From Candidatus Hatepunaea meridiana (GTDB taxonomy: Bacteria; Electryoneota; AABM5-125-24; Hatepunaeales; Hatepunaeaceae), in the NCBI GenBank assembly GCA_030765125.1, contig JAVCDD010000229.1, forward strand, positions 1-22,185: DNA of 22,185 nt, written 5' to 3'. The notes beneath the pieces were generated by a model, which saw only the letters and a list, made by a program, of their open reading frames with translations, did not search any database and was not told the DNA's origin. A program made the position numbers and the translations under genes. Positions 1,018 to 22,185 of this stretch are shown piece after piece (within the stretch, counting starts at the first letter, position 1; each line of letters opens with the position of its first letter).

Positions 1018-1025
1018 GAGAAATA

Positions 1026-1883: not shown

Positions 1884-1903
1884 CTTTTCCTTTGAATTTT
1901 GAC

Positions 1904-1935
1904 AAAACCCACTCCGTTAATTCGGAGTGGGTTTT
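1904..1935 (+). terminator. rho-independent-type hairpin between P1 and the large gene (aaaacccactccg-ttaatt-cggagtgggtttt, followed by a T-rich stretch)
   Basis: 13-bp perfect stem, 6-nt loop, followed by tttcttctct. A copy at 6269..6300 carries compensatory substitutions. The ORF-track start at 1899 is a TTG read through this hairpin and is rejected. Confidence 0.55.
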
Positions 1936-1955
1936 CTTCTCTGACCGGTTACAAC

Positions 1956-3659
1956 ATGACTGGTGTATTTGCCCCCGACCCGATTGATGATTATCTTGTC
2001 AATGGAGCTTCGCTTGAGGCTTACGTTATGCTGAACGATAATAACGTCGGTTCCGATACTATTGCAGTTGATTCGCTGCCTCCACCAGAGATACGGGTAT
2101 ATTTCGCCAACAGCGGCTACGAGGAGGTTCCGAAGGGAGCATTCTTCTACGTCCACTGGGACAGCATCTGGGTGGTGGTGGACAGCTTGACCGATGCTCA
2201 AGTACCGACGGTAACATTGGAGTTCAGTGCAAATGGCAAGATCTTCGGTGCGGGAGACATTGCCTGGGATTCGGATTCATCTTACTGGAAAACAGGCGTA
2301 TCAATTGACGCTGACGCCATTCCGACATTGGAGGAGTGGTATATGTATCCATGCGACATCCTGCGAGCCCACGCCAATTACAGCGACACTCATACAACCG
2401 ATGAAATCCGCTGCTTCGACCTGGTCGTCAACACCGGCAGTCTGCGCAACTACAACGGCTCGCCTCCGGTAGTAATGGCTTTAAGGCGCGATGACGATGC
2501 AGATGTCAATGACAGTGGCTTTGTGGCTAATCGGGTTTTATATGACTGGAATGATAACTACTTCGGAGACAACCTGTTTCTGGAATTGCAGAGCTTTAAT
2601 GTTAATCCCGATACGCTCAAAGCCTGGTTTGAATCGGCACAATTCACACAATACTTGCTTGATCCGTTCAACAATAATCATGGCAGCGCTGCATTCTTCT
2701 CTTTGGACGATTTCAGCGGTGAACCATACAACTACCTGAGTGACCTGTTCCAATCATATACTGTTTGGATATCCCAGGGTTGGCCCACGATAGATACTCC
2801 TTCAACCTCAACCGGCAGGGCACACAGGCTCAGGTACAAGGTTACTATAACAGTCAACAATTGGCGCACGGACTGGTGGCCAAGCCAGAACTCATTTATC
2901 GTTTCCAGTCCGATGATTTACCAGAATCCGGTGGATATTTTGCGGCAGGAGTATTTTGATCTGTATGGGAAAATAAGAAGGATCGTTGGAGATGATACGA
3001 TTTTTTACGTTGATCCTGAATGGATTAGTCCTTTATTATCAAATAACTTTATTGACTATGATGTGCCGTTAGGGATGCATCCAAGCGGTATTCACCATCA
3101 CTACAGCAATCATGACAGTACTCAGAACCTCGCGCCTGCAGATAGTATTTTTGAAATCTGGTGTGATTCGAGCATAACAGTGCTAATTGATTGGATTGGA
3201 TGCTACGATTTCAGTGACATAGACCCAAACCTTGTTATAAACAGAACATTTACTTCAGGTTACAGGTGTCCAATCAAGAACTCTAATCTAGGTGGTGCAG
3301 GTGGGAGTGCACACATGTTTGGCAGCGCTATTGATTATAATTTGTACTGGAATGAGTTCAGACATACGAACGAAGATCATAGAAAGAAGCTTTCGAAAAT
3401 CTTTTACAAGGTCTATTCTAGCGCGAATTTACAGCCTGCCAACCATAATTATACTGGATTGTATGGTCAGAATGTCAACAATTGGGGAACCGAGATTATC
3501 TTTAAACGATCTTACTTCCTCAATGATACTCTCGGAAGAGTTGATGGCTATCCAGATCCAGGGAAAGCCTTAGAATGGCCATTACGGTACATTTCAGGAA
3601 ATGATACGATCATTGTTTGTTATACAAGAGCTCACACAGATATTCGTCATCGAAGATAA
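1956..3659 (+). CDS. large (567-aa) protein with no signal peptide. The N-terminal ~390 aa are unknown. The C-terminus is a LAS-family zinc peptidase domain of peptidase M15 / DUF882 (MepK/YcbK-like or VanX/VanY-like) type. Candidate peptidoglycan-hydrolase effector.
   Basis: The first ATG after the hairpin is at 1956; the N-terminus is not hydrophobic. The C-terminus carries SGYRCPIKNSNLGGAGGSAHMFGSAIDY (the SxHxxGxAxD zinc-ligand motif) and a distal YTRAHTDIRHRR (the H.D.R motif of M15A/DUF882 enzymes). A truncated paralog lies at 388..1017. Confidence 0.7.
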   Translation: MTGVFAPDPIDDYLVNGASLEAYVMLNDNNVGSDTIAVDSLPPPEIRVYFANSGYEEVPKGAFFYVHWDSIWVVVDSLTDAQVPTVTLEFSANGKIFGAGDIAWDSDSSYWKTGVSIDADAIPTLEEWYMYPCDILRAHANYSDTHTTDEIRCFDLVVNTGSLRNYNGSPPVVMALRRDDDADVNDSGFVANRVLYDWNDNYFGDNLFLELQSFNVNPDTLKAWFESAQFTQYLLDPFNNNHGSAAFFSLDDFSGEPYNYLSDLFQSYTVWISQGWPTIDTPSTSTGRAHRLRYKVTITVNNWRTDWWPSQNSFIVSSPMIYQNPVDILRQEYFDLYGKIRRIVGDDTIFYVDPEWISPLLSNNFIDYDVPLGMHPSGIHHHYSNHDSTQNLAPADSIFEIWCDSSITVLIDWIGCYDFSDIDPNLVINRTFTSGYRCPIKNSNLGGAGGSAHMFGSAIDYNLYWNEFRHTNEDHRKKLSKIFYKVYSSANLQPANHNYTGLYGQNVNNWGTEIIFKRSYFLNDTLGRVDGYPDPGKALEWPLRYISGNDTIIVCYTRAHTDIRHRR

Positions 3660-3673
3660 TTTTGGAGATGAAA

Positions 3674-4504
3674 ATGAAGCAGTTCAAATTTTCGTTTTTA
3701 GTTCTATTAATGCCGCTAATGCTTGCTAATGCATCAGCTTGGCAAGATTCAATAGTTGTTATGTTTGACAGAACAAAAAACCAGTATACTCAAAGGTGGG
3801 CGTTCAGGACAATTTCAGAACTCACGCCAGCGTTTGTGAGACCGTTTGCAAATACGACCATAAAGGATGATTTTAACACAACCGATGTTAAAGCCGCCTT
3901 TGTTCGATTCGTTGAGTCAATTACCATAAACAAACCTGATCCGTACCCTCCCGATTTTGTTCCCTGTGCCTATCTTGATACTCCAGGAGATGATCGGGAC
4001 ATTGAGGGTATGATTGAGCTTCCTTATATTCTGAGTTTATGTGTCTCATGGAATATTGGTGGGAATCTATACACTATTGCTGATTCGCTATACATAGGGT
4101 ATAATCATTTGTTTCCCGTATATTGTTTTATCTGGAATCAAATGGATACCAGTTACTTCAATCACGTACTTACCCGAACTCAGACCGATTCAACTTTTGT
4201 GAATGGCGTTGGAATAGCGGAGGCGTACCTTTTGTACGGTGAGGATCCAAAGAAAGAGATGAAGAAAATTGCTCTTGATATCCTCGAAACGGGAGCGTTC
4301 TCGCCCTATTACGAAATCCGTCGTTGGACTGCTTATAGAATTGTGAAAGTATATACTGCAGGTTACACATCACTGTTTTCAAGTGTAAATACGTTATTGC
4401 ATGATTCAAGGCAACCCATCAGGTATGAAATCAACTACGAAATATCTAAACAACAGCGCAGAAACAACGCCCTGATGGAGTTTAACCTTGGTTCTGATGA
4501 ATAA
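3674..4504 (+). CDS. secreted protein, paralog P2. An alternative start at 3668 would add MK.
   Basis: GGAG at 3664..3667, so the ATG at 3674 has better spacing. Signal peptide MKQFKFSFLVLLMPLMLANASA|WQ. Conserved FVESITINKP, SLCVSWNIGGNLYTIADSLY and the C-terminal QQRRNNALMEFNLGSDE. Starts 15 nt after the stop of the large gene. Confidence 0.75.
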   Translation: MKQFKFSFLVLLMPLMLANASAWQDSIVVMFDRTKNQYTQRWAFRTISELTPAFVRPFANTTIKDDFNTTDVKAAFVRFVESITINKPDPYPPDFVPCAYLDTPGDDRDIEGMIELPYILSLCVSWNIGGNLYTIADSLYIGYNHLFPVYCFIWNQMDTSYFNHVLTRTQTDSTFVNGVGIAEAYLLYGEDPKKEMKKIALDILETGAFSPYYEIRRWTAYRIVKVYTAGYTSLFSSVNTLLHDSRQPIRYEINYEISKQQRRNNALMEFNLGSDE

Positions 4505-5369
4505 AGGTGTGAAATATATTGTCTTCATTCTGCTTGGGTTGGTGATGTTTGCTAATAGCGCTTTTGCACAAAGTACTCCTTTAGATACAGTTGTTGTCTG
4601 GTTCAACGATAGTCTAAATCAAGAAAAACAGGTTGGTGCATTCTACACAATTATTGTACAAGAGGACTATCATCGATCAACTGATATGGTTGAAGTAAGT
4701 CCAGAATATGATTCTACTAGAGTTCGTAATGCTTTCGAAAATTTTGTACGATCAATTACAATAAATGCTTACACTAGTTATCCTCCAGGATTTAAAGCTA
4801 GTTTATCATTAAACAATCGACCTGCGCCTGAAGATTCCGTTGGATTGCAGGAAGCTGAAGAATGGGATGTCCCTCATATATTGGATTATGTGCTAAGTTT
4901 ATACGTAAATTGGGGATTCACGACAGACCTCTATACAATTGCTGACTTGCTATATCAACCTCATGTAAATCGTATAGGCTATTACGCAATCATTTGGAAT
5001 GAATTAGGTATGGATTATTTCGAACACCTTGAAGATGAACAGGAATCCGATTCAACATTTTACAAAGGTATTTGGATTTGCTCCGAATACCTAACTCAAG
5101 CATACATAAAAGAAGATGACTTGGAAGAAAAAGCCCTTGATTTGCTAGCTGATCGAACACTATCCGGTGTCTCTTCAGTACAAAGAATGTACGCGGGTGC
5201 GAGAATGGTTGAGATCTATATGAAAGGTTATACAAATGTAAAAGCTTGCATAGATACCCTACTACAAGCTGATGATCAATACGTAAAACGCGAGGTTATA
5301 TGGGATATTCAAGAACAACAACGTAAAAACAATCTCCTGATGGAGTTCGACCTCGGTTCGGATGAATAG
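4497..5369 (+). CDS. secreted protein, paralog P3
   Basis: The ATG at 4497 sits inside the GATGAATAA that terminates P2, giving an 8-nt overlap. Signal peptide MNKGVKYIVFILLGLVMFANSAFA|QS. 60-70% identical to P1 over the N-terminal half. C-terminal QQRKNNLLMEFDLGSDE. Confidence 0.8.
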   Translation: MNKGVKYIVFILLGLVMFANSAFAQSTPLDTVVVWFNDSLNQEKQVGAFYTIIVQEDYHRSTDMVEVSPEYDSTRVRNAFENFVRSITINAYTSYPPGFKASLSLNNRPAPEDSVGLQEAEEWDVPHILDYVLSLYVNWGFTTDLYTIADLLYQPHVNRIGYYAIIWNELGMDYFEHLEDEQESDSTFYKGIWICSEYLTQAYIKEDDLEEKALDLLADRTLSGVSSVQRMYAGARMVEIYMKGYTNVKACIDTLLQADDQYVKREVIWDIQEQQRKNNLLMEFDLGSDE

Positions 5370-6247
5370 ATGTGTAAAATATATTGCCTTCATTCTGCTT
5401 GGGTTGATGATTTCGGTTTCACAAATTTATGCGGAAACTGTTCCGGTTGACACCGTAATCACCTGGTTCAACTCATATTGCGACCAAACCAAACAAGTGA
5501 AAGCGTTTTATACAATTGCAATACCGGTAAGAGAAACGGGAGTTTCTTATACTGGCAATAGTGTTTGTTATTGTCCATATCGAATGCTAGGCGTAAAAGC
5601 AATTTACGATACCAGCTCCGTAAAAGATGCCTTCAAAAAACTTCGTTCGTTCCATAACAATCGCTGATTGTACTTCAAGTTGCGACAGTGTTATTCTCTC
5701 GGAAGAGATTTACGGTCCACTACCTGGTGTTGATTATCAGGATTGGGAACCTAGTTACATCCAGAATTCAATATTGAGCCTTTACCTATGGTGGGAGATC
5801 ACTGATGATTTAAACGATATTGCCGACCATCTTTTTACTGGTTTGAATTACCTTGATGGTTATTACTCGTATCTGTGGGATAAGATTGGCACAAGTTATT
5901 TCGAACATGTTAAAACAAAAGTTCAAACCGATACAACATTTACTTTAGGATTGATGATTGCAGGCGCTTACCTCAAGAGCCCTGAAAATCAAATCGATTC
6001 TATGGCGAGTATTGCGGTCGATATTTTAAAAGCAGGTGTAGAATCTGATGTTCGGCAACTGCGCTCAACAACTTCATTTTTAATAGTCGATGCTTATCTA
6101 AAGGGACACGATGATCTGAAGAATGGGATAGATTCGCTATTGAATGACCCTTCGGCAACTACTCGGAGAAATGTATCTTATCAGATCGAAAGACAACAAC
6201 AGAGAAACAATCTCCTGATGGAGTTCGACCTCGGTTCGGGTGAATAG
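5362..6247 (+). pseudogene. secreted-protein paralog P4, disrupted by a +1 frameshift in an A6 run at 5635..5640. Also possible: a sequencing error or a slippage site.
   Basis: The ATG at 5362 again sits inside GATGAATAG of P3. Signal peptide MNRCVKYIAFILLGLMISVSQIYA|ET. The ORF track splits it into 5362..5667 and 5627..6247. Removing one A from ttcAAAAAActt restores DAFKNFVRSITIADC, matching FVRSI(S/T)INA in P1-P3. C-terminal QQQRNNLLMEFDLGSGE. Confidence 0.7.
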
Positions 6248-6440
6248 CCTTTCCTTTGTGTTTCAACCAAAGCCCGTTCCGTTAATTCGGAGCGGGTTTT
6301 CTTTTTGTACCAGTTACAACCTGACTGGTATATTTGCCCCCGACCCAAATGATGATTATCTTGTCAATGGAGCTTCGCTTGAGGCTTATGTTATGCTAAA
6401 CGATAATAACGTCGGTTCCGATACTATTTTAGTATGCTGC
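6248..6440 (+). repeat. ~185-bp direct repeat of 1884..2063 (~90% identity): the intergenic hairpin plus the first ~55 codons of the large gene. The start codon is changed to CTG.
   Basis: Aligned by eye. Identical stretches include gcccccgaccc, gatgattatcttgtcaatggagcttcgcttgaggcttayGTtatgct and aacgataataacgtcggttccgatactatt. Similarity is lost near 6430-6445, where a secretin fragment begins. Confidence 0.8.
6269..6300 (+). terminator. second copy of the intergenic hairpin (aaagcccgttccg-ttaatt-cggagcgggtttt, followed by ctttttg)
   Basis: Stem preserved relative to 1904..1935 through paired substitutions (ac>gt on the left arm, gt>gc on the right; one G-U wobble). Confidence 0.5.
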
Positions 6441-7138
6441 AGTTAAATGGTTTTAAAGAACTCGATTTTGGCAGTATAACGGCAGTTTTTAAATCGCTGG
6501 CAAATGATCAGATTGGCGAAATTATTGCCAGTCCGCAAATCACAGTTCAATCAAACAACGAAGGTCATATCCAGATAGGCAGCGATTTCTCTGTAAGTAC
6601 TAAGGATTATTCTGGTAACACTGTTACGCAATTTTTTTCCGCAGGTACAATTATTAATGTAAATCCACATATTTTTACATTGGATACAGTAACATTTATT
6701 CACCTTGATCTTGATGTCCAGAAAAGCAGTGCGTCCGCCAGCGATCTTGGTATTGAAGTAAAAAAATCATCCGCAAAAACTTCAATATTATTGCTCGATG
6801 GAGAGGAAACAATGATTGGGGGATTATATTCAAAAGAAAAAGCTCATTCCAGAGATGGTGTTCCTATTCTTAAGGACCTGCCGGGGTAGTTACTTGGATT
6901 GAAGTATCTGTTTGGTTATGAGACGGAGAGTATGATCTACAAAGAACTGATAATCATTCTGCGAGCAGATTTGGTGCCCACACTTGAAGAACGATTGAAG
7001 AATCGACTGAGTGATGCTAAGAAACAAAACATCCTGAAAAGCAGCATAGACAGATATAGAGAGGAAATGCGGAACTACGATGCGCAATTAAATAAGAACA
7101 AACTAAAAAACAATAAAACGAATCGGTTATACCCTTAG
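6434..7138 (+). pseudogene. secretin (GspD/PilQ family) C-terminal domain fragment. It lacks its N-terminal half and has an in-frame TAG at 6887..6889.
   Basis: SPQITVQSNNEGHIQIGSDFSV...LLLDGEETMIGGLYSKEKAHSRDGVPILKDLPG * LLGLKYLFGYETESMIYKELIIILRADLV matches the secretin motifs (S.P.I.T.NNQ.A.I.VG...DGET.VLGGLI....VP.LGDIP.LG.LF....EL.IFITP). Both ORF-track pieces (6434..6889 and 6899..7138) are in frame 2. The fragment starts exactly at the repeat breakpoint, and its 3' end runs into the MITE at 7123. Confidence 0.65.
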
Positions 7139-12014: not shown

Positions 12015-14168
12015 CTAACTTTCTTGCTCATCAATAGATGAATATTTCTTTGGCTGCCCGAGTTTCTCCAACAGCTCATTGACTTCGCGTTTCATTTCGA
12101 CGATGCGGTATTCCCTGCCCATAAAGAGCCTATTTGTTTTTTCGATTTCTTCCATTTGCTTTTTCAATGCCTCTTCTGATCGCTTGCGCTCAGTGATGTC
12201 AACAACGATTCCTCTAAATCCGATTGGATCGTTTTCACGCATAATAGGAGAGGAATAGATGATTACAGGAAATTTCGTTCCGTCTTTCCTTATGGCTGTG
12301 TATTCACCACCTCCTAATAGTTCTCCCTTTATTATCCTCGCAATATTTTCAGCTGCTCTTCTTCTGTCAACAGGAGCAACCATCTGCAGCGAGTCGATAC
12401 CCTTCGCGTAATCTTCGCTTGTGTACCCAAACCTTTCAAATCCAATCTGGCTGACAAATGTGAGGTTACCCTCCAAATCACATTCATAAATACACTCAGG
12501 GAAAAGTTCCGCCATATCTCTGAATCGACATTCGCTTTCCAGTAACGTCTTCTCCGCCCGTTTGCGTTCAGTGATATCTTCCCCTGAACTTAGTGTTCCT
12601 GAAATATTTCCTTTATCATCTACCAGAATAATATTATGCCACGCGATCAGCCGTTCTTCGCCTTCCACTGTTAAAATAGGATTTTCATAGTATGCTTCCG
12701 AATCTATATCACCTGCAGTCAAATCCGCATGAACGAATTTCATTTCTTCTCGCAATCTTTCGGGCAGAAAATTTTCTAACCAGTTCTTTCCAAGGATTTC
12801 CTCTTTCTCATAACCCAGAATCTCGCACCCTTTATTGTTTATCATCGTCACTACGCCATTATGATTGAGAGCCACGAACATCACACCTGCAATGTTTAAG
12901 TACGTCTGTGATTTACTCCTTTCTTCCCATAACGCTTCCTCTACTCTCTTACGCTCGGTGATGTCCCTTATGAAGGCTAAGACGGTGGGTTTCGCTTCAT
13001 AATCAGTCAAGGATGCATTTGCCTCAACTGGAAAAGTTGAACCATCTTTTCTGAGAAGCTCAAATTCATAGATATTAGGTACAGGTCTTCCCGCTAGACG
13101 ATCTTGATGTTTTTTCAAAACAAATTCTCTGGAATGCGGCGCAATAAAATCAATGAAGTTTTTATTAATCATTTCTTCAAGGGTGTAACCAACTAATTGA
13201 GCCCCTGCAGGGTTCACATACTTCAAAAGACCATCCTGAATTAAAATTATACAATCTTGGGAGCTCTCAACCAGACTGGAGTACTTCTTCTCGGATTCCT
13301 TCAGCTTTTCCTCCGCCCGTTTGCGATCTGTGATGTCACAAACAATAGACATAAACAACTTCTGTCCACTGGTTTTTAAAGGCACAATTGTTAACTCCAG
13401 AACAATCTTTGTACCATCTTTTCGCAATGCATCTCTCACAATGGGCATTTCAATGGGCTGATCAAGATTATTGTAAATCTGTAATCGACCATAGTGTTTT
13501 GCTTGTAAATCAGACGTTTTCATTGATAAGAGTTCTACGCGAGAGTAACCAAATAATTCGCATGCTTTATCACTGAAATCGATTATTTCTTGATTTTCAT
13601 TTTCCAACACTATTGCATCGCCCGCCTGTTCAAAAAGCGCCCGATAACGCTCCTCACCTATCAGCAGCGTTTCCTCAGTTTTTTTTCGTTCGGTGATGTC
13701 GCGTATGATGGCTGAAGCCCAGTATTTTTCTTTTATGCGAATCGGGGAAACTGCTATTTCTATCGGAAACTCGTTGCCGTCCTTGCGCATCGCGGTCAGT
13801 TCAACCACCTTACCGATGGCATTTCCATCTCCCGTTTTCTTGAATGTCTTGAATCCTTTCTTGAACTGAGCGCTATATTGTTTAGGCATAAGAATCTCGT
13901 GGACGTTCTGATCTGTCATTTCTTCATTGGTGTATCCGAAAATACGTTCCGCTGCCGGATTCCAGTACACGATGTTTCCGTCATCATCAATCAGGATCAC
14001 CGCATCAAGCGCCGAGGCACTGATAACGCGGAATTTCTCCTCACTTTCCTTCAGCAGCTCCTCCATCTGCTTGCGTTCGATTTCCGATCCTTCAAGTTCG
14101 GTAATCCGCTGACGCATCGCAGCTAACTCGTCAATTAGCTGCGCTTTGGTTTTGATTTGATCGTTCAT
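12015..14168 (-). CDS. multi-PAS-domain signalling protein (717 aa) with no recognisable output domain; the C-terminus is a coiled coil
   Basis: At least five PAS/PAC units separated by DITERK(K/R)xEEAL linkers. Ends KQMEEIEKTNRLFMGREYRIVEMKREVNELLEKLGQ, with no H-box or ATPase motifs. The first ~30 codons are identical to the ORF at 15279..15674. Confidence 0.85.
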   Translation of the reverse strand: MNDQIKTKAQLIDELAAMRQRITELEGSEIERKQMEELLKESEEKFRVISASALDAVILIDDDGNIVYWNPAAERIFGYTNEEMTDQNVHEILMPKQYSAQFKKGFKTFKKTGDGNAIGKVVELTAMRKDGNEFPIEIAVSPIRIKEKYWASAIIRDITERKKTEETLLIGEERYRALFEQAGDAIVLENENQEIIDFSDKACELFGYSRVELLSMKTSDLQAKHYGRLQIYNNLDQPIEMPIVRDALRKDGTKIVLELTIVPLKTSGQKLFMSIVCDITDRKRAEEKLKESEKKYSSLVESSQDCIILIQDGLLKYVNPAGAQLVGYTLEEMINKNFIDFIAPHSREFVLKKHQDRLAGRPVPNIYEFELLRKDGSTFPVEANASLTDYEAKPTVLAFIRDITERKRVEEALWEERSKSQTYLNIAGVMFVALNHNGVVTMINNKGCEILGYEKEEILGKNWLENFLPERLREEMKFVHADLTAGDIDSEAYYENPILTVEGEERLIAWHNIILVDDKGNISGTLSSGEDITERKRAEKTLLESECRFRDMAELFPECIYECDLEGNLTFVSQIGFERFGYTSEDYAKGIDSLQMVAPVDRRRAAENIARIIKGELLGGGEYTAIRKDGTKFPVIIYSSPIMRENDPIGFRGIVVDITERKRSEEALKKQMEEIEKTNRLFMGREYRIVEMKREVNELLEKLGQPKKYSSIDEQES

Positions 14169-14175
14169 TTTTATC
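14081..14175. repeat. ~95-bp direct repeat (1 mismatch) shared with 15587..15681, covering the start codon and first ~30 codons of two minus-strand PAS genes
   Basis: tttccgatcc(t/a)tcaagttcggtaatccgctgacgcatcgcagctaactcgtcaattagctgcgctttggttttgatttgatcgttcattttt is present at both sites. Confidence 0.85.
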
Positions 14176-15278: not shown

Positions 15279-15674
15279 TCAATTCCAGGAGCCATTCCTA
15301 TGCCGAAAACGATATTCATGATAATGCTGACCATTCTTGAAAATCTGACCAATATTTGCAAATACACGCGGCGCGTCTTCCGGATGTATATGTTTTGCCC
15401 AGAAACCAGAAGACAAGAATTCTTCCGGATCATACCCTATTAAGGTTTTTATATTCTCGCTTATGTATGTTGCGTCGAAATCACCCGTTGCTTCACAGGT
15501 ATAAATCATGGCAGGACTCGCTTCAAGCAAACGCTGTAGTTGATTGTGTGCGTTTAAAAGCGCTTCCTCCGCTTGCTTGCGTTTGGTTTCCGATCCATCA
15601 AGTTCGGTAATCCGCTGACGCATCGCAGCTAACTCGTCAATTAGCTGCGCTTTGGTTTTGATTTGATCGTTCAT
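15279..15674 (-). pseudogene. truncated PAS-domain paralog (131 aa, a single incomplete PAS domain ending ...YRFRHRNGSWN*)
   Basis: The N-terminus MNDQIKTKAQLIDELAAMRQRITEL is identical to the 717-aa protein. The PAS core ends prematurely, where the conserved continuation after RHRNGSW is missing. GC-rich noncoding DNA follows. Confidence 0.55.
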
Positions 15675-15681
15675 TTTTTTC
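15587..15681. repeat. second copy of the 95-bp PAS-gene 5' repeat (partner of 14081..14175)
   Basis: See the partner feature. Confidence 0.85.
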
Positions 15682-16497: not shown

Positions 16498-16566
16498 ACA
16501 GTATTAACTTACAATACTCCCCACACTCACGTTGGATTATTATAACCAACTTTTATGGAGAATAAT

Positions 16567-16704
16567 CATGCGGAACGCAATCCTTTTATTCACAATCTTA
16601 TGCATCGCACTACTTACAGTAAACACACCATTCGCCCAGAACTACGAAAATGTCGAACAGGTCAATCGGTTTGGTAACTATTGGTATAGAGCTTATGATG
16701 TCTG
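16567..16704 (+). CDS. possible small secreted peptide (45 aa; mature form about 21 aa, NYENVEQVNRFGNYWYRAYDV)
   Basis: ATG at 16567, preceded by GGAGA with a 6-nt spacer. Signal peptide MRNAILLFTILCIALLTVNTPFA|Q. TGA at 16702. Not in the ORF track because it is shorter than 60 aa. A hairpin at 16707..16731 follows. Confidence 0.4.
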
Positions 16705-16754
16705 ATTGACGACAATTAGAATTGTCGCTGACTGGGAAGAATAATTGTCGTTCA

Positions 16755-17030
16755 TCAGAAGGGCACACTCATTGCTTTGTCTGTGAGGCTCCTGATGACC
16801 TTTTCCCCCGTCATGTCCGGGAGTATATAGTCCAACAACAATAGTTTATTCGTGTCTTCAACCACCTTGACAATGGCATCAATTCCATTCAAAGCGGTTT
16901 CGGTTCGAAAACCTGATTTTTGAAGGAATTTTTGAATGAACCGATTTAAATCCTCATCATCTTCAATTATAAGAATAGTGAGAGGAGCGGAATCTTTATT
17001 CTTATTATTGCGATGTTTATCACCTTTCAC
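16755..17030 (-). pseudogene. truncated response-regulator receiver domain (91 aa; ends after ...KAMSVPF, before the conserved Thr/Lys region and any output domain)
   Basis: ILIIEDDEDLNRFIQKFLQKSGFRTETALNGIDAIVKVVEDTNKLLLLDYILPDMTGEKVIRSL is a typical REC N-terminal two-thirds. Stop at 16755; the downstream frames show no REC continuation. Confidence 0.55.
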
Positions 17031-17135
17031 AATTAAACCTCGCGTTATTACAACAGTGGATAGTGAATCCCGAATACGAAATAAAAATCCTCATCCTGTA
17101 TACAATATTGACTGTTTTAATTCTTTGTTTGCAGA

Positions 17136-17729
17136 TCATAGATTTTCAATCAAGGCTAACACCTTGTTTGAGTAACGTGTGCGAGGTGGTTTTAAATTCA
17201 GAGCAAACGTCCCGTATCTTCCTCGATTATAAGATGTCAGCGCCCAATGCAACGGCTCATTAAAATCGAGAAAGTGATTCATATGTTGCTCAAAAATCTG
17301 AATTCCCAAGTTAACGTTTGTGACAGGATCGTATAAATCGGCGGGTTTGATTTCTTTTCTGAGCTCCTTCGCCGCTATCATCCTGATTTGCATCAGACCG
17401 CGAGCCTCTCGTGTTGAGATGGCAAATGGCTCCCATAGTGATTCAATGGTAATAACAGCCTTGATTAGTTCCGGATAATCCGATGACTCGATTATCTCAA
17501 TAACCTGATGAGTCTTTTCATTGCCAATCTTTTCAGCTAACTTGCGATAGCCCCAGTAATTCCAGCTTGAAATCGGAACCTGGCTTGAAATTGATAACGA
17601 ATCATAAAAAATTGGCGTATGTCCAGTACTAACCAAGGAAAATACAACTAAAAGTGAGATTAGTGCATGTTTGATTTGTATTATAAGTCGCTCGACCATG
17701 AATATGCACCGCTTGAACTTGAGTAACAA
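17136..17729 (-). CDS. lytic transglycosylase, SLT-domain protein; start possibly at the internal Met at 17699
   Basis: TIESLWEPFAISTREARGLMQIRMIAAKEL...YDPVTNVNLGIQIF matches the SLT catalytic motif (ES...P.A.S..GA.GLMQ). N-terminal hydrophobic segment ISLLVVFSLVS. Confidence 0.75.
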   Translation of the reverse strand: MLLKFKRCIFMVERLIIQIKHALISLLVVFSLVSTGHTPIFYDSLSISSQVPISSWNYWGYRKLAEKIGNEKTHQVIEIIESSDYPELIKAVITIESLWEPFAISTREARGLMQIRMIAAKELRKEIKPADLYDPVTNVNLGIQIFEQHMNHFLDFNEPLHWALTSYNRGRYGTFALNLKPPRTRYSNKVLALIENL

Positions 17730-17744
17730 AACGGATCTGTTTTA

Positions 17745-18050
17745 CTACACTGAGGAAGTCTCAAGCCTGGCTAATCTTTCCTCTATCCGCGTGAGAGTAT
17801 CGTCTTGTCGTCTATTAAATTCATTCTGGTGAAACATGGGATTATTAACCCACCAGTCCATGCCCATTTCTTTAGCTTTATCCACAGAGCAGATCACCAA
17901 TCGAATCTGGATAGTCAGTAATTCGACATCGGCGATATTAATCCTGATATCACCGGCTATTACAATCCCCTTATCCAGAATACGCTCTAAAATGTCCGCC
18001 AAAGTGCTGGAATTGGTTGAATGTTGCATTGCTTGTTGCTGTATTGCCAC
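17745..18050 (-). CDS. gvpJ: gas vesicle protein of the GvpA/GvpJ family, GvpJ-like (101 aa, GTG start)
   Basis: LADILERILDKGIVIAGDIRINIADVELLTIQIRLVICSVDKAKEMGMDWW is the GvpA-fold core with the extended C-terminus of the J/M subfamily. GGAGA 7 nt upstream of the GTG. Confidence 0.7.
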   Translation of the reverse strand: MAIQQQAMQHSTNSSTLADILERILDKGIVIAGDIRINIADVELLTIQIRLVICSVDKAKEMGMDWWVNNPMFHQNEFNRRQDDTLTRIEERLARLETSSV

Positions 18051-18063
18051 TTAATTATCTCCT

Positions 18064-18459
18064 TTAGAATAATTTCCCAATAGGACCAAGATCAATGTTT
18101 AGGTCGTCTTCCTTTAATCCAAACTCTCTGCTGATTCTATTGATTTCTTCTGTCTGCTGCATTAAAGTTAACCCGAGTTTTTCAATCTCGGCATCTGTCA
18201 ATGATCCTGCGTCGATGCGTCTTATTGCCTGCTTCTCTAAAAGCTCGTGAAGCAGTTTAATAATTGATAACACCAGTTGAGCAAGTCCATTTTTTACCTT
18301 TTCCGCGTCCAAGTTTATTCTATCTTTCCCTTTTATCCTTGAGATAGATTTTGCGGTATTTTGTTTATTAGGCAGAAGAGAACCTTGTCCTTTTTGCATT
18401 ATTTTACTAAAATCGCTCAGTGCATTGGATTCTACAACCGGCTGTTTAAAAGGTGACAT
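18064..18459 (-). CDS. gvpK: gas vesicle protein GvpK
   Basis: GLAQLVLSIIKLLHELLEKQAIRRIDAGSLTDAEIEKLGLTLMQQTEEINRISREFGL matches the GvpK signature (LV.TL.ELLR.L.E.QA.RR...G.LTDEE.ERLG..LM). AGGAGA 6 nt upstream of the ATG. Confidence 0.75.
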   Translation of the reverse strand: MSPFKQPVVESNALSDFSKIMQKGQGSLLPNKQNTAKSISRIKGKDRINLDAEKVKNGLAQLVLSIIKLLHELLEKQAIRRIDAGSLTDAEIEKLGLTLMQQTEEINRISREFGLKEDDLNIDLGPIGKLF

Positions 18460-18469
18460 TCATTATCTC

Positions 18470-18676
18470 CTATGATTTCAATTCCTTCGGAATCAGCTCA
18501 TCTTGAATTGTTTTAATATTAGTTAGAATGAGTTGAAGTTCAAGGTAAATCAGATCGATACCCGCAACTGAGAGTGTTACATCTCCAATAACGACAACAC
18601 CTTTATTAAGGACTCGGTCGAGCAATTCACATATAGAGACATGTTCTGTTTCGTTTAAATTTGAATGGTCGGTCAT
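18470..18676 (-). CDS. small gas vesicle protein of the GvpA/J/M family, GvpM-like (68 aa from the internal ATG at 18676)
   Basis: ICELLDRVLNKGVVVIGDVTLSVAGIDLIYLELQLILTNIK is the GvpA-fold core. AGGAGAG precedes the ATG at 18676. The longer ORF-track version would overlap the upstream ATPase gene. Confidence 0.65.
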   Translation of the reverse strand: MTDHSNLNETEHVSICELLDRVLNKGVVVIGDVTLSVAGIDLIYLELQLILTNIKTIQDELIPKELKS

Positions 18677-18719
18677 AACTCTCCTAAACGGTAATAATGA
18701 TTTATGATGTATTGCATGT

Positions 18720-20654
18720 TCAAGTTTTCCAATAGAGAGCATCTCCCAGTTTCTGAAGCTGCTCCAAACCGCGAGGTTCGCCGTTGCGATAGATCATTAC
18801 CGGAGGAATACTGGTAAAAGTCTGAAAATATTTATGTAAGAGTTTAAATTCGCGCGCGTTTATCTCATTGCACAGATCACAACCATCGGAAGGTGTAGCC
18901 ATATTAATTAACATACTTGGTATGCCGATGCTCATCCTTTCACATGCAGATACAAGATCCTTGGTTTCTTCAAAAGCCATTTCAGTGAGAATTGTAACGA
19001 CATATAGTTTAGATCTCGCTGGATCAATCAATAGTTCGCGCAGATATTTGACATCTTTGGACATTTGCACTAATTTTTTCATAATCTCCGGAAGCTTGAA
19101 AACATTCTTGTATTTAAGAAAAAGATTAAAGAATGTCTTTAACCATTGCTCTATAAATTGCGGAAGTTCAAGAAGTCGAAGCAAATGACCGGTTGGTGCC
19201 GAATCAAGTATAAAATAATCGTATGTGTTTTTAGTGATAAATTCTATAGCGCGTGTGAGAGCCATGATTTCATCCAGTCCTGGTGGTGACACATCCATAA
19301 TTCGTGACATTACTTCACGATCAAAGACAAAATCAACATTGGGTGAAATAGTCTTCAGGAAGTTTTCTAATTCTTCTGAATACTGTTCCTTTAAGGTTCT
19401 AAATTCAGACTGAGCATCGATCTCTAAAGCTATTAATCCAGGCATCAATTCCTTTGGTTCTGAACCAACTTCCTTGTCAAAACAAACCGACAGTGAATGA
19501 GCAGGATCGGTCGAGAAGATAAAGGTTTTCTTTTCTGTAAATTCGCAAGCCAACCGTACTGCCGTCGCGCTGGCTAACGTAGTTTTTCCAACGCCGCCTT
19601 TCCCGGCAAAAAGCATAAATTTAGTTTCAGGAGTAGGGAGACATCGAGATCCCTCTACTCGGTATGACTTAGGTGCAGTCTTCAAATTAGGTTCTCCTGC
19701 ATCTGAAGGTTGCTTACTAATTTCTGAGATGTCTCCCCAAAACGTTTCAAGGACTTTTGTGCCTCGGATTTCCTTTTTATTAAGAGGTATTCCCCAGAGA
19801 GAATAATCTGTGAATTCCTGAATATGAAATTGCAGTGTTTCAATTTGATGTTTTCGCCAATGTGCACACACTCGGCATTTATTTTTAGGATAAAGTTTAT
19901 TTACGATAATTTCATTTACTGGTATTTTTAAGAAAGATAGCTGATTAATAAGTTCTCCAGTCTCATGAATACTTAACTCTTCAGCAAGCATAACTGGTAC
20001 GAATTGGCAGGTGACTGGATCCTGTAATAATGTTTCCATTCGATTAATAGAAGCAGAAAAATCTAAGAGGAATTCATCGATTTCATCTTTACGGTAGAAA
20101 CCACTGAAAAGCTTTTTCATGTAACGATGTTTTGCAAGCAAGGAATCCATGGCATCGATCCATTTACGAATCAATTGCGGCATTTCCAGGAGCCTCAGTG
20201 TATGACCGGTTGGAGCTGTGTCAACGATGATGCAGTCATATATGCCATCCTCAATCCATTTGATTATCTCAAGAAACGCCATAAGTTCGTCCATACCCGG
20301 TAGAGAAATGTCCAAGAATTGGTTAATATCCGCATCATCCAGAAATGTTCCGCGCGATGCAATCTTCCGGAATTTTGCATTGTGTTTCTTCTTGAAATCG
20401 GTCAGGAGAATTTGGGCATCGATTTCGGTGAGTTTTAAGTTCTGGGGAAGGGAGTTTCCAGCGAAGCTGTCCATAAGCGAGTGCGCCGGATCGGTCGAAG
20501 CGATAAGGAAAAAATCCTGAGGACAATTCTGCGCATATTGGATCGCAGTAGCTGCAGCACATGTAGTTTTTCCCGCTCCGCCTTTTCCGCTAAACAGGAT
20601 TAATCGCAAACCCCGTTTTTTTAAGAATGTAGGTATAAGTCCACCCGATAACAT
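18720..20654 (-). CDS. two-domain ArsA/Get3-family P-loop ATPase (annotated as arsenite-transporter ATPase-like), embedded in the gvp operon
   Basis: Two Walker A loops, FSGKGGAGKTT and FAGKGGVGKTT. Two DTAPTGH / DSAPTGH signature motifs and two TDPAHSL motifs. Start taken at the ATG at 20654 (MLSGG...) with GAGGAAAGGG upstream; the ORF-track start at 20666 is a TTG. Confidence 0.85.
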   Translation of the reverse strand: MLSGGLIPTFLKKRGLRLILFSGKGGAGKTTCAAATAIQYAQNCPQDFFLIASTDPAHSLMDSFAGNSLPQNLKLTEIDAQILLTDFKKKHNAKFRKIASRGTFLDDADINQFLDISLPGMDELMAFLEIIKWIEDGIYDCIIVDTAPTGHTLRLLEMPQLIRKWIDAMDSLLAKHRYMKKLFSGFYRKDEIDEFLLDFSASINRMETLLQDPVTCQFVPVMLAEELSIHETGELINQLSFLKIPVNEIIVNKLYPKNKCRVCAHWRKHQIETLQFHIQEFTDYSLWGIPLNKKEIRGTKVLETFWGDISEISKQPSDAGEPNLKTAPKSYRVEGSRCLPTPETKFMLFAGKGGVGKTTLASATAVRLACEFTEKKTFIFSTDPAHSLSVCFDKEVGSEPKELMPGLIALEIDAQSEFRTLKEQYSEELENFLKTISPNVDFVFDREVMSRIMDVSPPGLDEIMALTRAIEFITKNTYDYFILDSAPTGHLLRLLELPQFIEQWLKTFFNLFLKYKNVFKLPEIMKKLVQMSKDVKYLRELLIDPARSKLYVVTILTEMAFEETKDLVSACERMSIGIPSMLINMATPSDGCDLCNEINAREFKLLHKYFQTFTSIPPVMIYRNGEPRGLEQLQKLGDALYWKT

Positions 20655-20689
20655 CCCTTTCCTCAAGTTTAAAGTGGTCGTTCATTGGT

Positions 20690-20923
20690 TTAGAACTTTC
20701 GGCTCTCAAACTCATCAAGTTTGTCGAGAAGATCCTTCTCACGAGCCGTGAATTCGGACTCAGTAATTCTACCGGTTTCAAGCATCATATAGAGTTCACT
20801 TAGCTTGGTTTTAATTGCTTCTCCTTCAGAGAGAAGCTCTTCCTGAGCAGCATTGTGCAACTTTCGAGCAAGCCATATAACACCATGAATTGGAGCAAGC
20901 AGAATATCGTCGATAAGAAACAT
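20690..20923 (-). CDS. gvpG: gas vesicle protein GvpG
   Basis: MFLIDDILLAPIHGVIWLARKL...LSELYMMLETGRITESEFTAREKDLLDKLDE fits the GvpG pattern (MFLLDDLLL.P..G..W......E.......L.EL...LE.GEI.E.EF...E..LL.RL). Confidence 0.7.
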   Translation of the reverse strand: MFLIDDILLAPIHGVIWLARKLHNAAQEELLSEGEAIKTKLSELYMMLETGRITESEFTAREKDLLDKLDEFESRKF

Positions 20924-20954
20924 TGTTTAACTCACATTAGATAAGCGGAGAGTG

Positions 20955-20992
20955 GTGGAATGCGAAAACGGGAGACTATTTTCGCATTCCAC
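20955..20992. promoter_or_regulatory. perfect 14-bp-stem hairpin (gtggaatgcgaaaa-cgggagactat-ttttcgcattccac) immediately 3' of the gvpF/L stop, within the operon
   Basis: Seen directly. On the minus-strand transcript it lies between the gvpF/L stop (20995) and the gvpG start (20923). No strong U-tract follows. Confidence 0.5.
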
Positions 20993-20994
20993 AA

Positions 20995-21762
20995 TTATTC
21001 TTGAGAATCAACCTTCAAGTCAATATCGACAAAATTATGAGGAGCCCAGGGTCCATTGAAGTCGAATGCGAAATTATTGTCGAAAAACTTCGACGCATCG
21101 AATATGCCGTTTTCAAAACTTTTCTGCATATCTCGTTCCACGAGACATGCCAGATTCATTACTTCCTCCTCATTGCGGCAATTATTTCGTTTGATTTCTA
21201 CGCAGCTCTGTTCTAATGCATTTACAACCTGGTTAGTATAGGTTTCACGATCTTCATTAAGAAGTTGTTCAAACCTTCGACCGAGCTCGATCTTATCATT
21301 CTGGTTTATGGTTTGGCTTCGACCGAATAAACGATCACGCAGTATCCGCAGATCCGGATGAACGTGCACAAAGTATTCGAAGATATTCTGAACATCCCAT
21401 GCCACTCGCAAACCCATTTCGACCTTGTTAGCGACATTTCTGAGTTGCTCGATGAAGATGTTTTGGTTGAGAGAGAGAATCTTCCTGACCGCTTCTATGC
21501 TATCGGCAACGACTCCGAAAGTCATGGGCAGCGGTGTAGTCTCTTCCATGAGGAATCTAAGGACTCCCTGGTGAGCCGCTAAGTTGCGACGTTCCGGACG
21601 CAGTTTCCTATTTGCAATGTCACTGACAACGGCTGAAACAACGCTGTCCGAAATATGGTAAACTACGCCATCATCAATACCTATAGCGCCATAATCCTTT
21701 TCTTCAGCATTGGAAACGACAGCATATAGATAATGTCCTTTTTTAACTTTTTCTTCAGGCAT
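20995..21762 (-). CDS. gvpF: gas vesicle protein of the GvpF/GvpL family
   Basis: YLYAVVSNAEEKDYGAIGIDDGVVYHISDSVVSAVVSDIANRKLRPERRNLAAHQGVLRFLMEETTPLPMTFGVV matches the GvpF/L N-terminal signature (YVYGVV....G..G....V....LAAVVS.V.....RPER.NLLAH..VLE.....TVLPMRFG.V). Confidence 0.8.
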   Translation of the reverse strand: MPEEKVKKGHYLYAVVSNAEEKDYGAIGIDDGVVYHISDSVVSAVVSDIANRKLRPERRNLAAHQGVLRFLMEETTPLPMTFGVVADSIEAVRKILSLNQNIFIEQLRNVANKVEMGLRVAWDVQNIFEYFVHVHPDLRILRDRLFGRSQTINQNDKIELGRRFEQLLNEDRETYTNQVVNALEQSCVEIKRNNCRNEEEVMNLACLVERDMQKSFENGIFDASKFFDNNFAFDFNGPWAPHNFVDIDLKVDSQE

Positions 21763-21847
21763 TATGATCTATCCAGAAAAAATGGCAAATTTTCAGATGC
21801 AGTAAAGGTTCTTGTAAAAGTTGGGTGACCCACTGGCTGATGCCCTC

Positions 21848-21895
21848 GTTTAACTCGCTGACAGACGCCTTTGTTTAACCCGCTGGCAGATGGGG
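21848..21895. repeat. two tandem ~23-bp imperfect repeats (gtttaactcgctgacagacgcc / gtttaacccgctggcagatgggg) ~90 nt upstream of the gvpF/L start
   Basis: Seen directly. In position to be an operator or regulator-binding site for the minus-strand gvp operon. Confidence 0.4.
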
Positions 21896-21907
21896 ACATC
21901 TGCTTTA

Positions 21908-22185
21908 ATTAGTGTCTGACCGAAAATCCTTCTCTCTGTCATTCCCGCGAAAGCGGGAATCCAGATAACCTATTGTTTCTCCTGGATTCCCGCTTTCGCG
22001 GGAATGACAGAGAGAAGGTTATATTCAAGAATATAGGGGTTTTCGGTTAGTCACTACTTAGTGTCTGACCGGAAAGCCCCTTTTTTGTCATTCCCGCGAA
22101 GGCGGGAATCCAGACAACTTATTGTTTCTCCTGGATTCCCGCCTTCGCGGGAATGACAAAAGAGGGTTAATATCCAGAAAAACGG
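21908..22185. repeat. tandem ~149-bp units, two copies (the second cut by the window end). Each contains a 73-bp palindrome (tgtcattcccgcgaaRgcgggaatccag - 17 nt - ctggattcccgcYttcgcgggaatgaca) at 21938..22010 and 22087..22159.
   Basis: Unit copies: ttagtgtctgaccgRaaa...tgtcattcccgcg.... Each arm is itself a hairpin (attcccgc-gaaa-gcgggaat). The architecture is the same as the palindrome at 7565..7638. Confidence 0.7.

Follow-up and report, generated by a model that had tools for sequence, protein, structure and literature searches.

The ATPase encoded among the gas-vesicle (gvp) genes of 'Candidatus Hatepunaea meridiana' belongs to a gvp-dedicated clade and is a conserved part of a widespread gvpF–gvpG–ATPase–gvpJ/M–gvpK–gvpJ cluster type. 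It is a SIMIBI-class member of the Get3/ArsA family, in which a single chain carries two Get3-like halves as a pseudo-dimer, and it is not a subunit of an arsenite pump. We infer from homology that it likely acts, driven by ATP, as a chaperone of hydrophobic proteins of the GvpA family, and the client, the zinc binding and the ATP dependence considered below all draw on homology in the same way.

Organisation of the gvp gene block

The window, meaning the whole stretch of DNA analysed here, is one entire 22,185-bp contig of the 'Candidatus Hatepunaea meridiana' MAG. Pfam searches identified on its minus strand a block consisting of gvpF/L, gvpG, the two-domain ArsA-type ATPase gene, a GvpM-like gene, gvpK and a GvpJ-like gene (Table 1), so that the order, the short gaps and the ribosome-binding sites described in the original prediction agree with both the Pfam assignments and the spacing. 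The intergenic gaps amounted to 71 nt between gvpF/L and gvpG, 35 nt between gvpG and the ATPase gene, 10 nt between the GvpM-like gene and gvpK, and 13 nt between gvpK and the GvpJ-like gene, with Shine–Dalgarno sites throughout the block. In related loci, an FL gene likewise precedes G-ArsA at the place that gvpF/L occupies here. For the GvpJ-like gene, the top NCBIfam match was the halo GvpJ model with 53.5 bits, which is under its cut-off.

The ATPase gene starts at ATG 20654, preceded by GAGGAAAGGG, and the same start is used by NCBI (P0001, 644 aa, 100% match); the program-listed open reading frame begins 12 nt earlier, at a TTG. The start of the GvpM-like gene is more probably ATG 18676 than 18742, because an AGGAG site precedes the former. 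Starting at 18676 would leave a 43-nt gap from the ATPase stop, and starting at 18742 would give a 23-nt overlap. Scanning the minus strand from 16500 to 22185 yielded no terminator-like sites. Promoter-like sites were not enriched (16 found versus 13.4 expected) and, being no commoner than in shuffled sequence, led to no promoter assignment. The SLT-domain lytic transglycosylase gene may be co-transcribed with the gvp block; it is no conserved member of gvp clusters, a similar gene after the block being present in only one of the compared loci (L025). The PAS kinase and response-regulator fragments encoded downstream were considered as counterparts of the kinase and regulator found inside related gvp clusters and were set aside, as they share only generic domain similarity of 24–34%.

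Table 1. Features of the window around the gvp block.
Feature	Coordinates	Strand	Evidence and remarks
gvpF/L	20995..21762	-	Pfam GvpL_GvpF, E 5.9e-60; first gene of the block in the contig
gvpG	20690..20923	-	Pfam GvpG, E 1.6e-18
Two-domain Get3/ArsA-family ATPase, 644 aa	18720..20654	-	ArsA_ATPase PF02374, E 1.5e-124, two matched stretches
GvpM-like GvpA-family paralogue	18470..18676 (longest ORF to 18742)	-	Pfam Gas_vesicle, E 2.4e-16
gvpK	18064..18459	-	Pfam GvpK, E 2.9e-32
GvpJ-like GvpA-family paralogue	17745..18050	-	Pfam Gas_vesicle, E 7.6e-18
SLT-domain lytic transglycosylase	17136..17729	-	Pfam SLT, E 5.6e-18; directly downstream of the gvp block
Palindromic repeat, two tandem copies	21906..22158	.	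Repeat families D2, I1, I2; non-coding leader upstream of gvpF, contig end

Searching the window by tblastn with GvpA and GvpN queries from a related cluster revealed neither gvpN nor a third GvpA-type gene, in agreement with the original prediction that both gvpA and gvpN are absent from it. Upstream of gvpF, the contig continues for 423 bp and ends in repeats. The 27-nt core of the palindromic repeat occurs in four copies, versus 0 expected by chance, and no Rfam family matched anywhere in the window, upstream palindromes included. Because the contig breaks in these repeats just upstream of gvpF, the absence of gvpA and gvpN is most simply read as a limit of the assembly. Comparing the GvpF of the window with metagenome contigs yielded no relative, and a related GvpN compared with 5.8 billion proteins gave no Hatepunaea-named match among the best 120, which we attribute to the conservation of GvpN above 70% across phyla.

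Gene order across phyla and the presence of GvpN

Among the 80 best genome loci, 75 contained gvp genes, and this extended to an identity as low as about 30%. These loci were distributed over Acidobacteriota, Verrucomicrobiota, Desulfobacterota, Pseudomonadota, Chloroflexota, Planctomycetota, Bacteroidota, Spirochaetota and archaea. As synteny is conserved to this extent, the gvp linkage of the ATPase is non-accidental, and the dedication to gas-vesicle assembly originally put forward is plausible. The gene order F-G-ArsA-J/M-K-J is shared by loci from many phyla. When the window was counted together with 83 loci, gvpG lay directly upstream of the ATPase gene in 46 of the 84 sequences, and a GvpA/J/M-family gene directly followed the ATPase gene in 39. 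Cultured carriers include Methylobacter psychrophilus Z-0021 and a gas-vacuolate Polaromonas.

Every sufficiently long relative of the F-G-ArsA-J/M-K-J type has gvpA and the GvpN gene upstream at a distance of a few kb, oriented like the rest of the cluster; in the related locus L001, the upstream genes read gvpA-(x)-gvpN-(x)-(x). Annotating the surroundings of two homologues (59% identity) with Pfam likewise placed both genes upstream. In complete clusters of this type, the ATPase accompanies GvpN, with gvpA and gvpN upstream, and the idea that it takes the place of GvpN is not supported. GvpN, the canonical gas-vesicle ATPase (AAA+, AAA_5), is likewise gvp-encoded but has an unrelated fold. 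Since GvpN and the Get3-type ATPase co-occur at 39 of the 80 related genome loci, the two are no alternatives in this cluster type. Compact Acidobacteriota clusters with the order F-(G)-ArsA-F-J/M-(F)-K-J/M-J/M contain the ATPase and no GvpN within 10 kb.

The association of gvp genes with this type of ATPase is itself not new, as it was published in 2010, and it is widespread; the novelty implied at the outset is thus not upheld. The passages of Castillo & Saier 2010 (PMC2963123) that treat these proteins report two-domain ArsA homologues in gvp operons of Chlorobi/Bacteroidetes, cyanobacteria, a delta-proteobacterium and an acidobacterium, and propose that they energise a step of vesicle biogenesis alongside, and distinct from, that of GvpN. 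According to the same passages, the members of Clusters 4 and 6 resemble the ATPase in having about 640 residues and two domains, in lying among gvpF/L, G, J, K and M (and N where visible) with no ars genes or arsR nearby, and in missing the ArsA cysteines. From this context and from 45–60% identity to gvp-linked homologues, we infer that the ATPase of the window is a member of their gvp-associated ArsA clade. It derives from the uncultured FCB-group phylum Ca. Electryoneota, which lies outside the sampling of the 2010 study, and has about 60% identity to its nearest database relatives. This copy therefore adds a new phylum, a gene order in which the ATPase accompanies GvpN, and residue-level evidence for a Get3-like and not ArsA-like protein, where the Get3-type CxxC motifs of the two halves and the helical subdomain of Get3 length extend beyond what those passages cover. 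The literature searched on gas vesicles with Get3/ArsA-type ATPases yielded nothing relevant beyond this paper and no experimental work on the gvp-linked clade, while ArsA or ATPases come up only in unrelated contexts in the papers on Nodularia, Chloroploca and Anabaena 7120.

Get3-like and ArsA-like features of the ATPase

The ATPase matched the TIGR00345 model (GET3_arsA_TRC40) with 408.7 bits versus a cut-off of 135 bits, and PF02374 in two stretches with 415.6 bits versus a cut-off of 24.3. Its N half (residues ~1–335) and C half (~336–644) share 32% identity (E 9e-47), indicating a fused A1-A2 two-domain chain within the gvp operon as originally recognised. The deviant Walker A motif GKGGxGKT, the DPAHS switch I and the D[TS]APTGH switch II are each present in both halves. 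Across 73 locus-derived homologues, the lysines of Walker A (K24 and K352 in the ATPase of the window), the aspartates of the switches and the histidines of DTAPTGH are essentially invariant in both halves, and both nucleotide sites are intact. An AF2 model was obtained with a pLDDT of 80 and a pTM of 0.77. In Foldseek searches with this model, fused ArsAs matched over the full length and Get3 matched each half.

Get3/TRC40 proteins (yeast 2WOJ; archaeal 3ZQ6 and 3UG6) share with the ATPase the deviant Walker A, switches I and II, the PG[ILM]DE motif, CxxC and the length of the helical subdomain, but are homodimers of 35–40 kDa chains, whereas the gvp-linked protein consists of fused halves. 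The CxxC motifs are C260/C263 in the N half and C592/C595 in the C half, and align with the zinc-binding CxxC of the Get3 dimer interface, both that of M. thermautotrophicus and M. jannaschii Get3 and C285/C288 of yeast Get3. All four cysteines are invariant in 26 close homologues, and among the 73 locus-derived homologues they are kept in 65–68 (N half) and 59–63 (C half). The segment after switch II comprises 58 and 51 residues in the two halves, compared with 57 in Get3 and 44 and 31 in ArsA, and the AF2 model predicts these Get3-length subdomains, which correspond to the TRC40-insert region, to be helical. Each half is 28–32% identical to Get3 structures versus 20–21% to ArsA. Basic and aromatic residues are conserved in the helical subdomains (LLAKHRYMKKLF and LFLKYKNVFKLP), which do not have a plainly Met-rich surface, and this observation counts against the chaperone model. 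The top PDB sequence match was ArsA1 of Chlamydomonas reinhardtii (5ZME/5ZMF, E 4.2e-69), which is likewise a monomeric pseudo-dimer of Get3-like halves with no role in arsenic resistance. This fused Get3 serves chloroplast tail-anchored proteins; it is eukaryotic, unrelated to gas vesicles, devoid of CxxC at the aligned position and about 23% identical to the ATPase in the structural alignment.

A conventional ArsA, i.e. the catalytic subunit of an arsenite efflux pump lying among gvp genes by chance, would share the Pfam family and the fused two-domain architecture. ArsA structures were also the top full-length Foldseek matches, and many database homologues are auto-named 'arsenite-transporting ATPase'. 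E. coli R773 ArsA (1F48) and L. ferriphilum ArsA (9NBW) indeed have the A1-A2 architecture, the fold and the DTAPTGH signal-transduction motifs in common with the ATPase, with TM-scores of 0.63 (query-normalised) and 0.70–0.72 (target-normalised). The ATPase, however, reached only 169.6 bits versus the cut-off of 650 on the ArsA equivalog model TIGR04291 and 197 bits versus 800 on the haloarchaeal ArsA model NF041417, and is 25% identical to E. coli ArsA. The metalloid-binding positions Cys113, Cys172 and Cys422 (E. coli ArsA numbering, with the reference sequence verified against 1F48) are occupied by non-cysteine residues in both halves. Both ArsA structures lack CxxC and have a shortened helical subdomain, unlike the gvp-linked ATPase, which in turn lacks the ArsB/ArsD/Acr3 context. 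Pfam scans of the 22-kb contig, including its other large ORFs, revealed no arsB, arsD, arsR, acr3 or arsC. Given in addition the gvp clusters at nearly all related loci, a conventional arsenic-resistance protein, the outcome that would have undone the original prediction, is exceedingly improbable.

Candidate roles in gas-vesicle assembly

How the aggregation-prone and extremely hydrophobic GvpA stays soluble and enters the growing wall is an open question, which gains relevance from the engineering of gas vesicles as acoustic reporters. A Get3-like clade in the gvp operons of many phyla would be an obvious candidate for this solubility and insertion step, and could improve heterologous expression of those gvp clusters that carry it. 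GvpA and GvpJ possess a highly hydrophobic region, GvpA represents a cellular burden, and for a cluster without a Get3-type ATPase GvpF and GvpG have been proposed as chaperones (PMC11445434). The best explanation, in which we have moderate confidence, is a gvp-dedicated fused Get3-like ATPase that accompanies GvpN and works like Get3 on GvpA-family clients. In the mechanism that we propose, the two CxxC pairs would hold one zinc ion between the halves as a hinge, and binding of ATP would close the halves such that the helical subdomains build a composite groove. This groove would shield a hydrophobic segment of newly made GvpA, GvpJ or GvpM, or of GvpG, until ATP hydrolysis, probably triggered at a GvpF/G/K assembly complex, opens the ATPase and the client passes to the vesicle shell as this forms or grows. 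The enlargement of vesicles would remain the separate task of GvpN.

Several points count against the chaperone model. Clients of Get3 are helical C-terminal membrane anchors, whereas proteins of the GvpA family have no tail anchor and, once assembled into the shell, fold their hydrophobic core into a β-hairpin. The gvp cluster contains no recognisable gene for a Get1/2-like receptor and, unlike in Get3 systems, no Get1/2/4/5-like partner was recognised near the ATPase. To our knowledge, the well-studied gvp clusters of Halobacterium, Anabaena flos-aquae, B. megaterium and Serratia make vesicles without a Get3-type ATPase, so that its function would be accessory or lineage-specific.

In another reading, the ATPase would use ATP to assemble or remodel the soluble scaffold of GvpF/L, G and K, for example by loading or recycling a nucleation complex, and would carry no shell protein. 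Nothing at the sequence level separates this from the chaperone model. In nearly all loci the ATPase gene has gvpF-gvpG on one side and gvpJ/M-gvpK on the other, which speaks for a scaffold role, as does the proposal in the relevant passages of Castillo & Saier (PMC2963123), which goes no further than the energising of a biogenic step other than the GvpN step. The helical subdomain retained from Get3, however, would point to the binding of hydrophobic peptides, and we regard a pure scaffold factor as unlikely.

Two further readings were set aside together with the conventional ArsA. A ParA/MinD-like ATPase could space or segregate gas vesicles in the way that McdA/ParA systems position carboxysomes, and organelle clusters often carry such ATPases. 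The SIMIBI class and the deviant Walker A are in common, and weak Pfam matches to CbiA, ParA and AAA_31 cover the P-loop. Yet the Get3/ArsA signal of 408 bits contrasts with 40 bits for ParA_partition, the cycle of ATP-dependent dimerisation used by ParA systems is lost when the two halves are covalently joined and have a CxxC hinge and helical subdomain of the Get3 type, and no partner adaptor gene is evident, rendering a positioning role improbable. A general bacterial Get3 for tail-anchored proteins that is loosely linked to gvp genes, or a redox-switched, ATP-independent CxxC holdase, would account for the Get3 hallmarks in both halves and for the closest PDB relative being the tail-anchored targeting factor 5ZME. 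A housekeeping factor would nevertheless not be expected at a fixed position of the gvp operon across many phyla, gvp clusters account for nearly all of the clade in the 80 best loci, and the strict conservation of both ATP sites argues against a purely ATP-independent role, so that this reading is quite improbable.

The presumed destination of clients of the gvp-linked ATPase is a protein-shelled organelle, as opposed to the lipid membrane served by Get3. In a bolder form of the chaperone model, which we put forward tentatively and consider doubtful, the ATPase is a targeting chaperone that would capture hydrophobic GvpA-family shell proteins and, with expenditure of ATP, deliver them to the gas-filled organelle and, in the compact Acidobacteriota clusters, would be the sole assembly ATPase in replacement of GvpN. 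If true, this would constitute a bacterial Get3-type pathway with a destination other than a lipid membrane.

The gas-vesicle gene block

The window, one complete 22,185-bp contig from a metagenome-assembled genome (MAG) assigned to Ca. Electryoneota (FCB group), carries a two-domain ATPase of the ArsA/Get3 family amid gas-vesicle (gvp) genes. Pfam scans and tblastn confirmed throughout the gene content of the original prediction, including the absence from the window of gvpA and gvpN, as tblastn with the GvpA and GvpN of a related cluster located neither gene there. The ATPase is 100% identical over 644 aa to the NCBI protein 'ArsA family ATPase' and starts at the ATG at 20654, preceded by GAGGAAAGGG. 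For the GvpM-like gene the ATG at 18676, with AGGAG in front, is most likely the start. The genes are separated by gaps of 10–71 nt and no minus-strand terminator-like sites were found across the block, an arrangement compatible with a single operon without proving one. An SLT-domain lytic transglycosylase follows gvpJ after 15 nt on the same strand; since a comparable gene after the gvp block was found only in L025, among the loci compared, it does not count among the conserved genes of the cluster.

Features of the window, with Pfam E-values
Feature	Position	Strand	E-value
gvpF/L	20995-21762	-	5.9e-60
gvpG	20690-20923	-	1.6e-18
ArsA_ATPase (two matched stretches)	18720-20654	-	1.5e-124
GvpA-family, GvpM-like	18470-18742	-	2.4e-16
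gvpK	18064-18459	-	2.9e-32
GvpA-family, GvpJ-like	17745-18050	-	7.6e-18
SLT transglycosylase	17136-17729	-	5.6e-18
Tandem palindromic units	21906-22158
117-nt direct repeat	14059-14175, 15565-15681
Truncated PAS ORF / response regulator regions	15279-15674, 16755-17030
Secretin ORF (partial domain match)	6434-6889		4.3e-24
Six ORFs before the secretin ORF	388-6247	+

A fused Get3-like ATPase

The two halves of the ATPase share 32% identity (E 9e-47). The protein passed the broad GET3/ArsA/TRC40 model TIGR00345 (408.7 bits; cut-off 135) and widely failed the arsenical-pump equivalog TIGR04291 (169.6 bits; cut-off 650). We aligned both halves with E. coli ArsA and yeast Get3, each reference being 100% identical to its PDB entry (1F48 and 2WOJ). 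E. coli ArsA is 25% identical to the ATPase, and the positions aligned with its metalloid-binding cysteines (Cys113, Cys172 and Cys422) are non-cysteine in either half, the Cys422 position being occupied by a Get3-like PG[ML]DE motif. Each half carries a CxxC (C260-R-V-C263 and C592-D-L-C595) that aligns with the zinc-binding CxxC of yeast Get3 (C285/C288) and of archaeal Get3 (3ZQ6, 3UG6). The helical segment after switch II spans 58 and 51 residues in the two halves and 57 in Get3, whereas the ArsA halves have 44 and 31.

In a set of 26 close homologues none of the four cysteines varies; among 73 locus-derived homologues the N-half cysteines are kept in 65–68 and the C-half cysteines in 59–63, and the Walker A lysines, switch aspartates and DTAPTGH histidines of both halves show essentially no variation. 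The AlphaFold2 model (pLDDT 80, pTM 0.77) superposes at full length on fused ArsAs and Chlamydomonas ArsA1 (target-normalised TM-score 0.61–0.73, 20–23% identity), and its single halves on Get3/TRC40 (28–32% identity). Chlamydomonas ArsA1, a Get3 fusion that serves tail-anchored proteins of the chloroplast, is also the top PDB sequence match (E 4.2e-69); it lacks the CxxC. Together, these data show a fused, pseudo-dimeric, Get3-like ATPase with intact ATP sites, a Get3-type CxxC and a helical subdomain of Get3-like length. A functional arsenic-resistance ArsA is rejected by the TIGR04291 score, by the missing metalloid cysteines and by the gene content: Pfam scans of the other large ORFs in the window revealed PAS sensor kinases, part of a secretin and ORFs of no recognised kind, and no ars genes. 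This makes a conventional arsA, the case that the original prediction had set against itself, very improbable.

Association with gvp genes and a possible role

Relatives were sampled as the best 80 loci from one genome per GTDB species and typed by tblastn with the Gvp proteins of the window and GvpA and GvpN of L001, a related gvp cluster. The prediction of a gvp-dedicated ATPase was borne out, with gvp genes at 75 of these loci. Of the remaining five, two are short contigs of 3.2 and 5.2 kb and three come from Myxococcaceae, and in this sample the ATPase clade is strictly linked to gvp genes. Across 84 sequences (83 loci and the window), gvpG is the upstream neighbour of the ATPase in 46, and a GvpA/J/M-family gene directly follows it in 39. 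Carriers among the best loci belong to Acidobacteriota, Verrucomicrobiota, Desulfobacterota, Gemmatimonadota, Pseudomonadota (including the cultured Methylobacter psychrophilus and a Polaromonas MAG), Chloroflexota, Planctomycetota, Spirochaetota, Bacteroidota, Hydrogenedentes and archaea. The Myxococcaceae proteins (L071, L075, L078) are two-domain and ArsA-like, at 28% identity, with Gln for the second Walker A lysine and Ser or Thr for the second DTAPTGH histidine; as their neighbourhoods contain no gvp genes, they make up a separate clade whose second site is degenerate.

The central point, the association of the ATPase with gvp genes, was already published in 2010. Castillo & Saier (Int J Microbiol 2010, PMC2963123) described two-domain ArsA homologues, ~640 aa long and encoded in the gvp operons of Polaribacter irgensii, Pelodictyon luteolum, Anabaena variabilis, Nostoc PCC 7120, a delta-proteobacterium and an acidobacterium, with neither ars genes nor the ArsA cysteines, and proposed that they supply energy to a step in vesicle biogenesis other than the one served by GvpN. 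Since a full-text literature search returned no other paper linking gas vesicles with ArsA/Get3 homologues and no experiment, and NCBIfam has no model dedicated to the gvp-linked clade, the association is known but neglected. The ATPase of the window, whose nearest database relatives are about 60% identical, is a new clade member from a previously unsampled phylum.

We consider it very probable that the ATPase is dedicated to gas-vesicle biogenesis. In Get3, a zinc site serves as hinge, ATP drives closure into a hydrophobic groove and hydrolysis leads to release. By analogy, zinc would be the hinge of the ATPase and ATP-driven closure would create a groove for a hydrophobic stretch from GvpA, GvpJ or GvpM (or GvpG), which upon hydrolysis would be released and handed over at a GvpF/G/K assembly site. 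Work on a cluster without such an ATPase supports the need for a chaperone: both GvpA and GvpJ of that cluster are hydrophobic, its GvpA burdens the cell, and a chaperone role was proposed for GvpF and GvpG (PMC11445434). Against such a chaperone weigh that Gvp shell proteins are not tail-anchored, that the cluster has no evident receptor and that the helical subdomains contain conserved basic and aromatic motifs. Model gas-vesicle organisms also, to our knowledge, make vesicles without this ATPase. On balance, this specific chaperone and hand-over mechanism appears about evenly poised.

Relation to GvpN and the contig end

Precomputed Pfam neighbourhoods were compared for two 59%-identity homologues, from an AABM5-125-24 (Electryoneota) MAG and a Pseudomonadota MAG. 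Both share the order CDC48-like AAA, (Hsp20), two gvpF/L, PAS kinase, response regulator, gvpA (72 aa), an unknown, GvpN (AAA_5, about 323 aa), two small unknowns, gvpF, gvpG, ATPase, gvpJ/M, gvpK and gvpJ. The original prediction had the ATPase standing where GvpN usually is; this fails for clusters of this architecture (type 1), because the relatives have both. GvpN was found in 39 of the 80 best loci. Type-1 clusters (L001 1-1855, 6279-6611, 8006-8672; L003, a further locus, 937-1431) further contain the CDC48-like double-AAA protein, sometimes Hsp20, and three small conserved Pfam-less proteins, one of which (74 aa) has two CxxC pairs suggesting a zinc ribbon; the PAS kinase and response regulator lie between gvpF/L and gvpA. 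We know of no description of these additional components in model gvp systems.

A second architecture, gvpF-(gvpG)-ATPase-gvpF-gvpJ/M-(gvpF)-gvpK-gvpJ/M-gvpJ/M, occurs in Acidobacteriota (Pyrinomonadaceae, Blastocatellia, Thermoanaerobaculia; L041-L061, L064-L065, L069, L072, L076, L079, L081; e.g. L042 8813-15169). Within 10 kb of these clusters tblastn found no GvpN, which it would not have missed since GvpN is >70% identical across phyla, and no CDC48-like AAA was present. In L042, from a chromosome-level assembly, Pfam places the cluster between ABC transporters at one end and a kinase plus regulator at the opposite end. The Get3-like protein is the sole ATPase within these gvp clusters.

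The block in the window is the downstream half of type 1. By comparison with its relatives, gvpA and gvpN of this organism are expected some kilobases upstream of gvpF, and their apparent absence is most likely a contig-end artefact. The 423 bp from gvpF to the contig end are non-coding and hold two tandem units of ~104 nt (88% identical), each containing a 37-nt perfect palindrome whose loop measures 17 nt and whose core reads GTCATTCCCGCGAARGCGGGAATCCAG. Within the window these units are confined to this end; they matched no Rfam family, resemble a REP- or MITE-like element and plausibly caused the assembly to break off here. Searches for the sequence past this end retrieved no continuation.

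Elsewhere in the window, the 117-nt direct repeat (94% identical) places a second copy of 'MNDQIKTKAQLIDELAAMRQRITEL', the N-terminus of a multi-PAS protein of 717 aa, in a truncated 131-aa PAS ORF. A response regulator close by is truncated as well (Response_reg positions 1-72 of 111), and 14.2–17.1 kb has the appearance of gene remnants from a rearrangement. The 151-aa secretin ORF has only a partial domain match, and the six ORFs before it have little or no Pfam signal apart from one weak Peptidase_M15 match. Together they may represent a divergent gene cluster for a pilus or for secretion, in which the secretin is truncated or mis-called.
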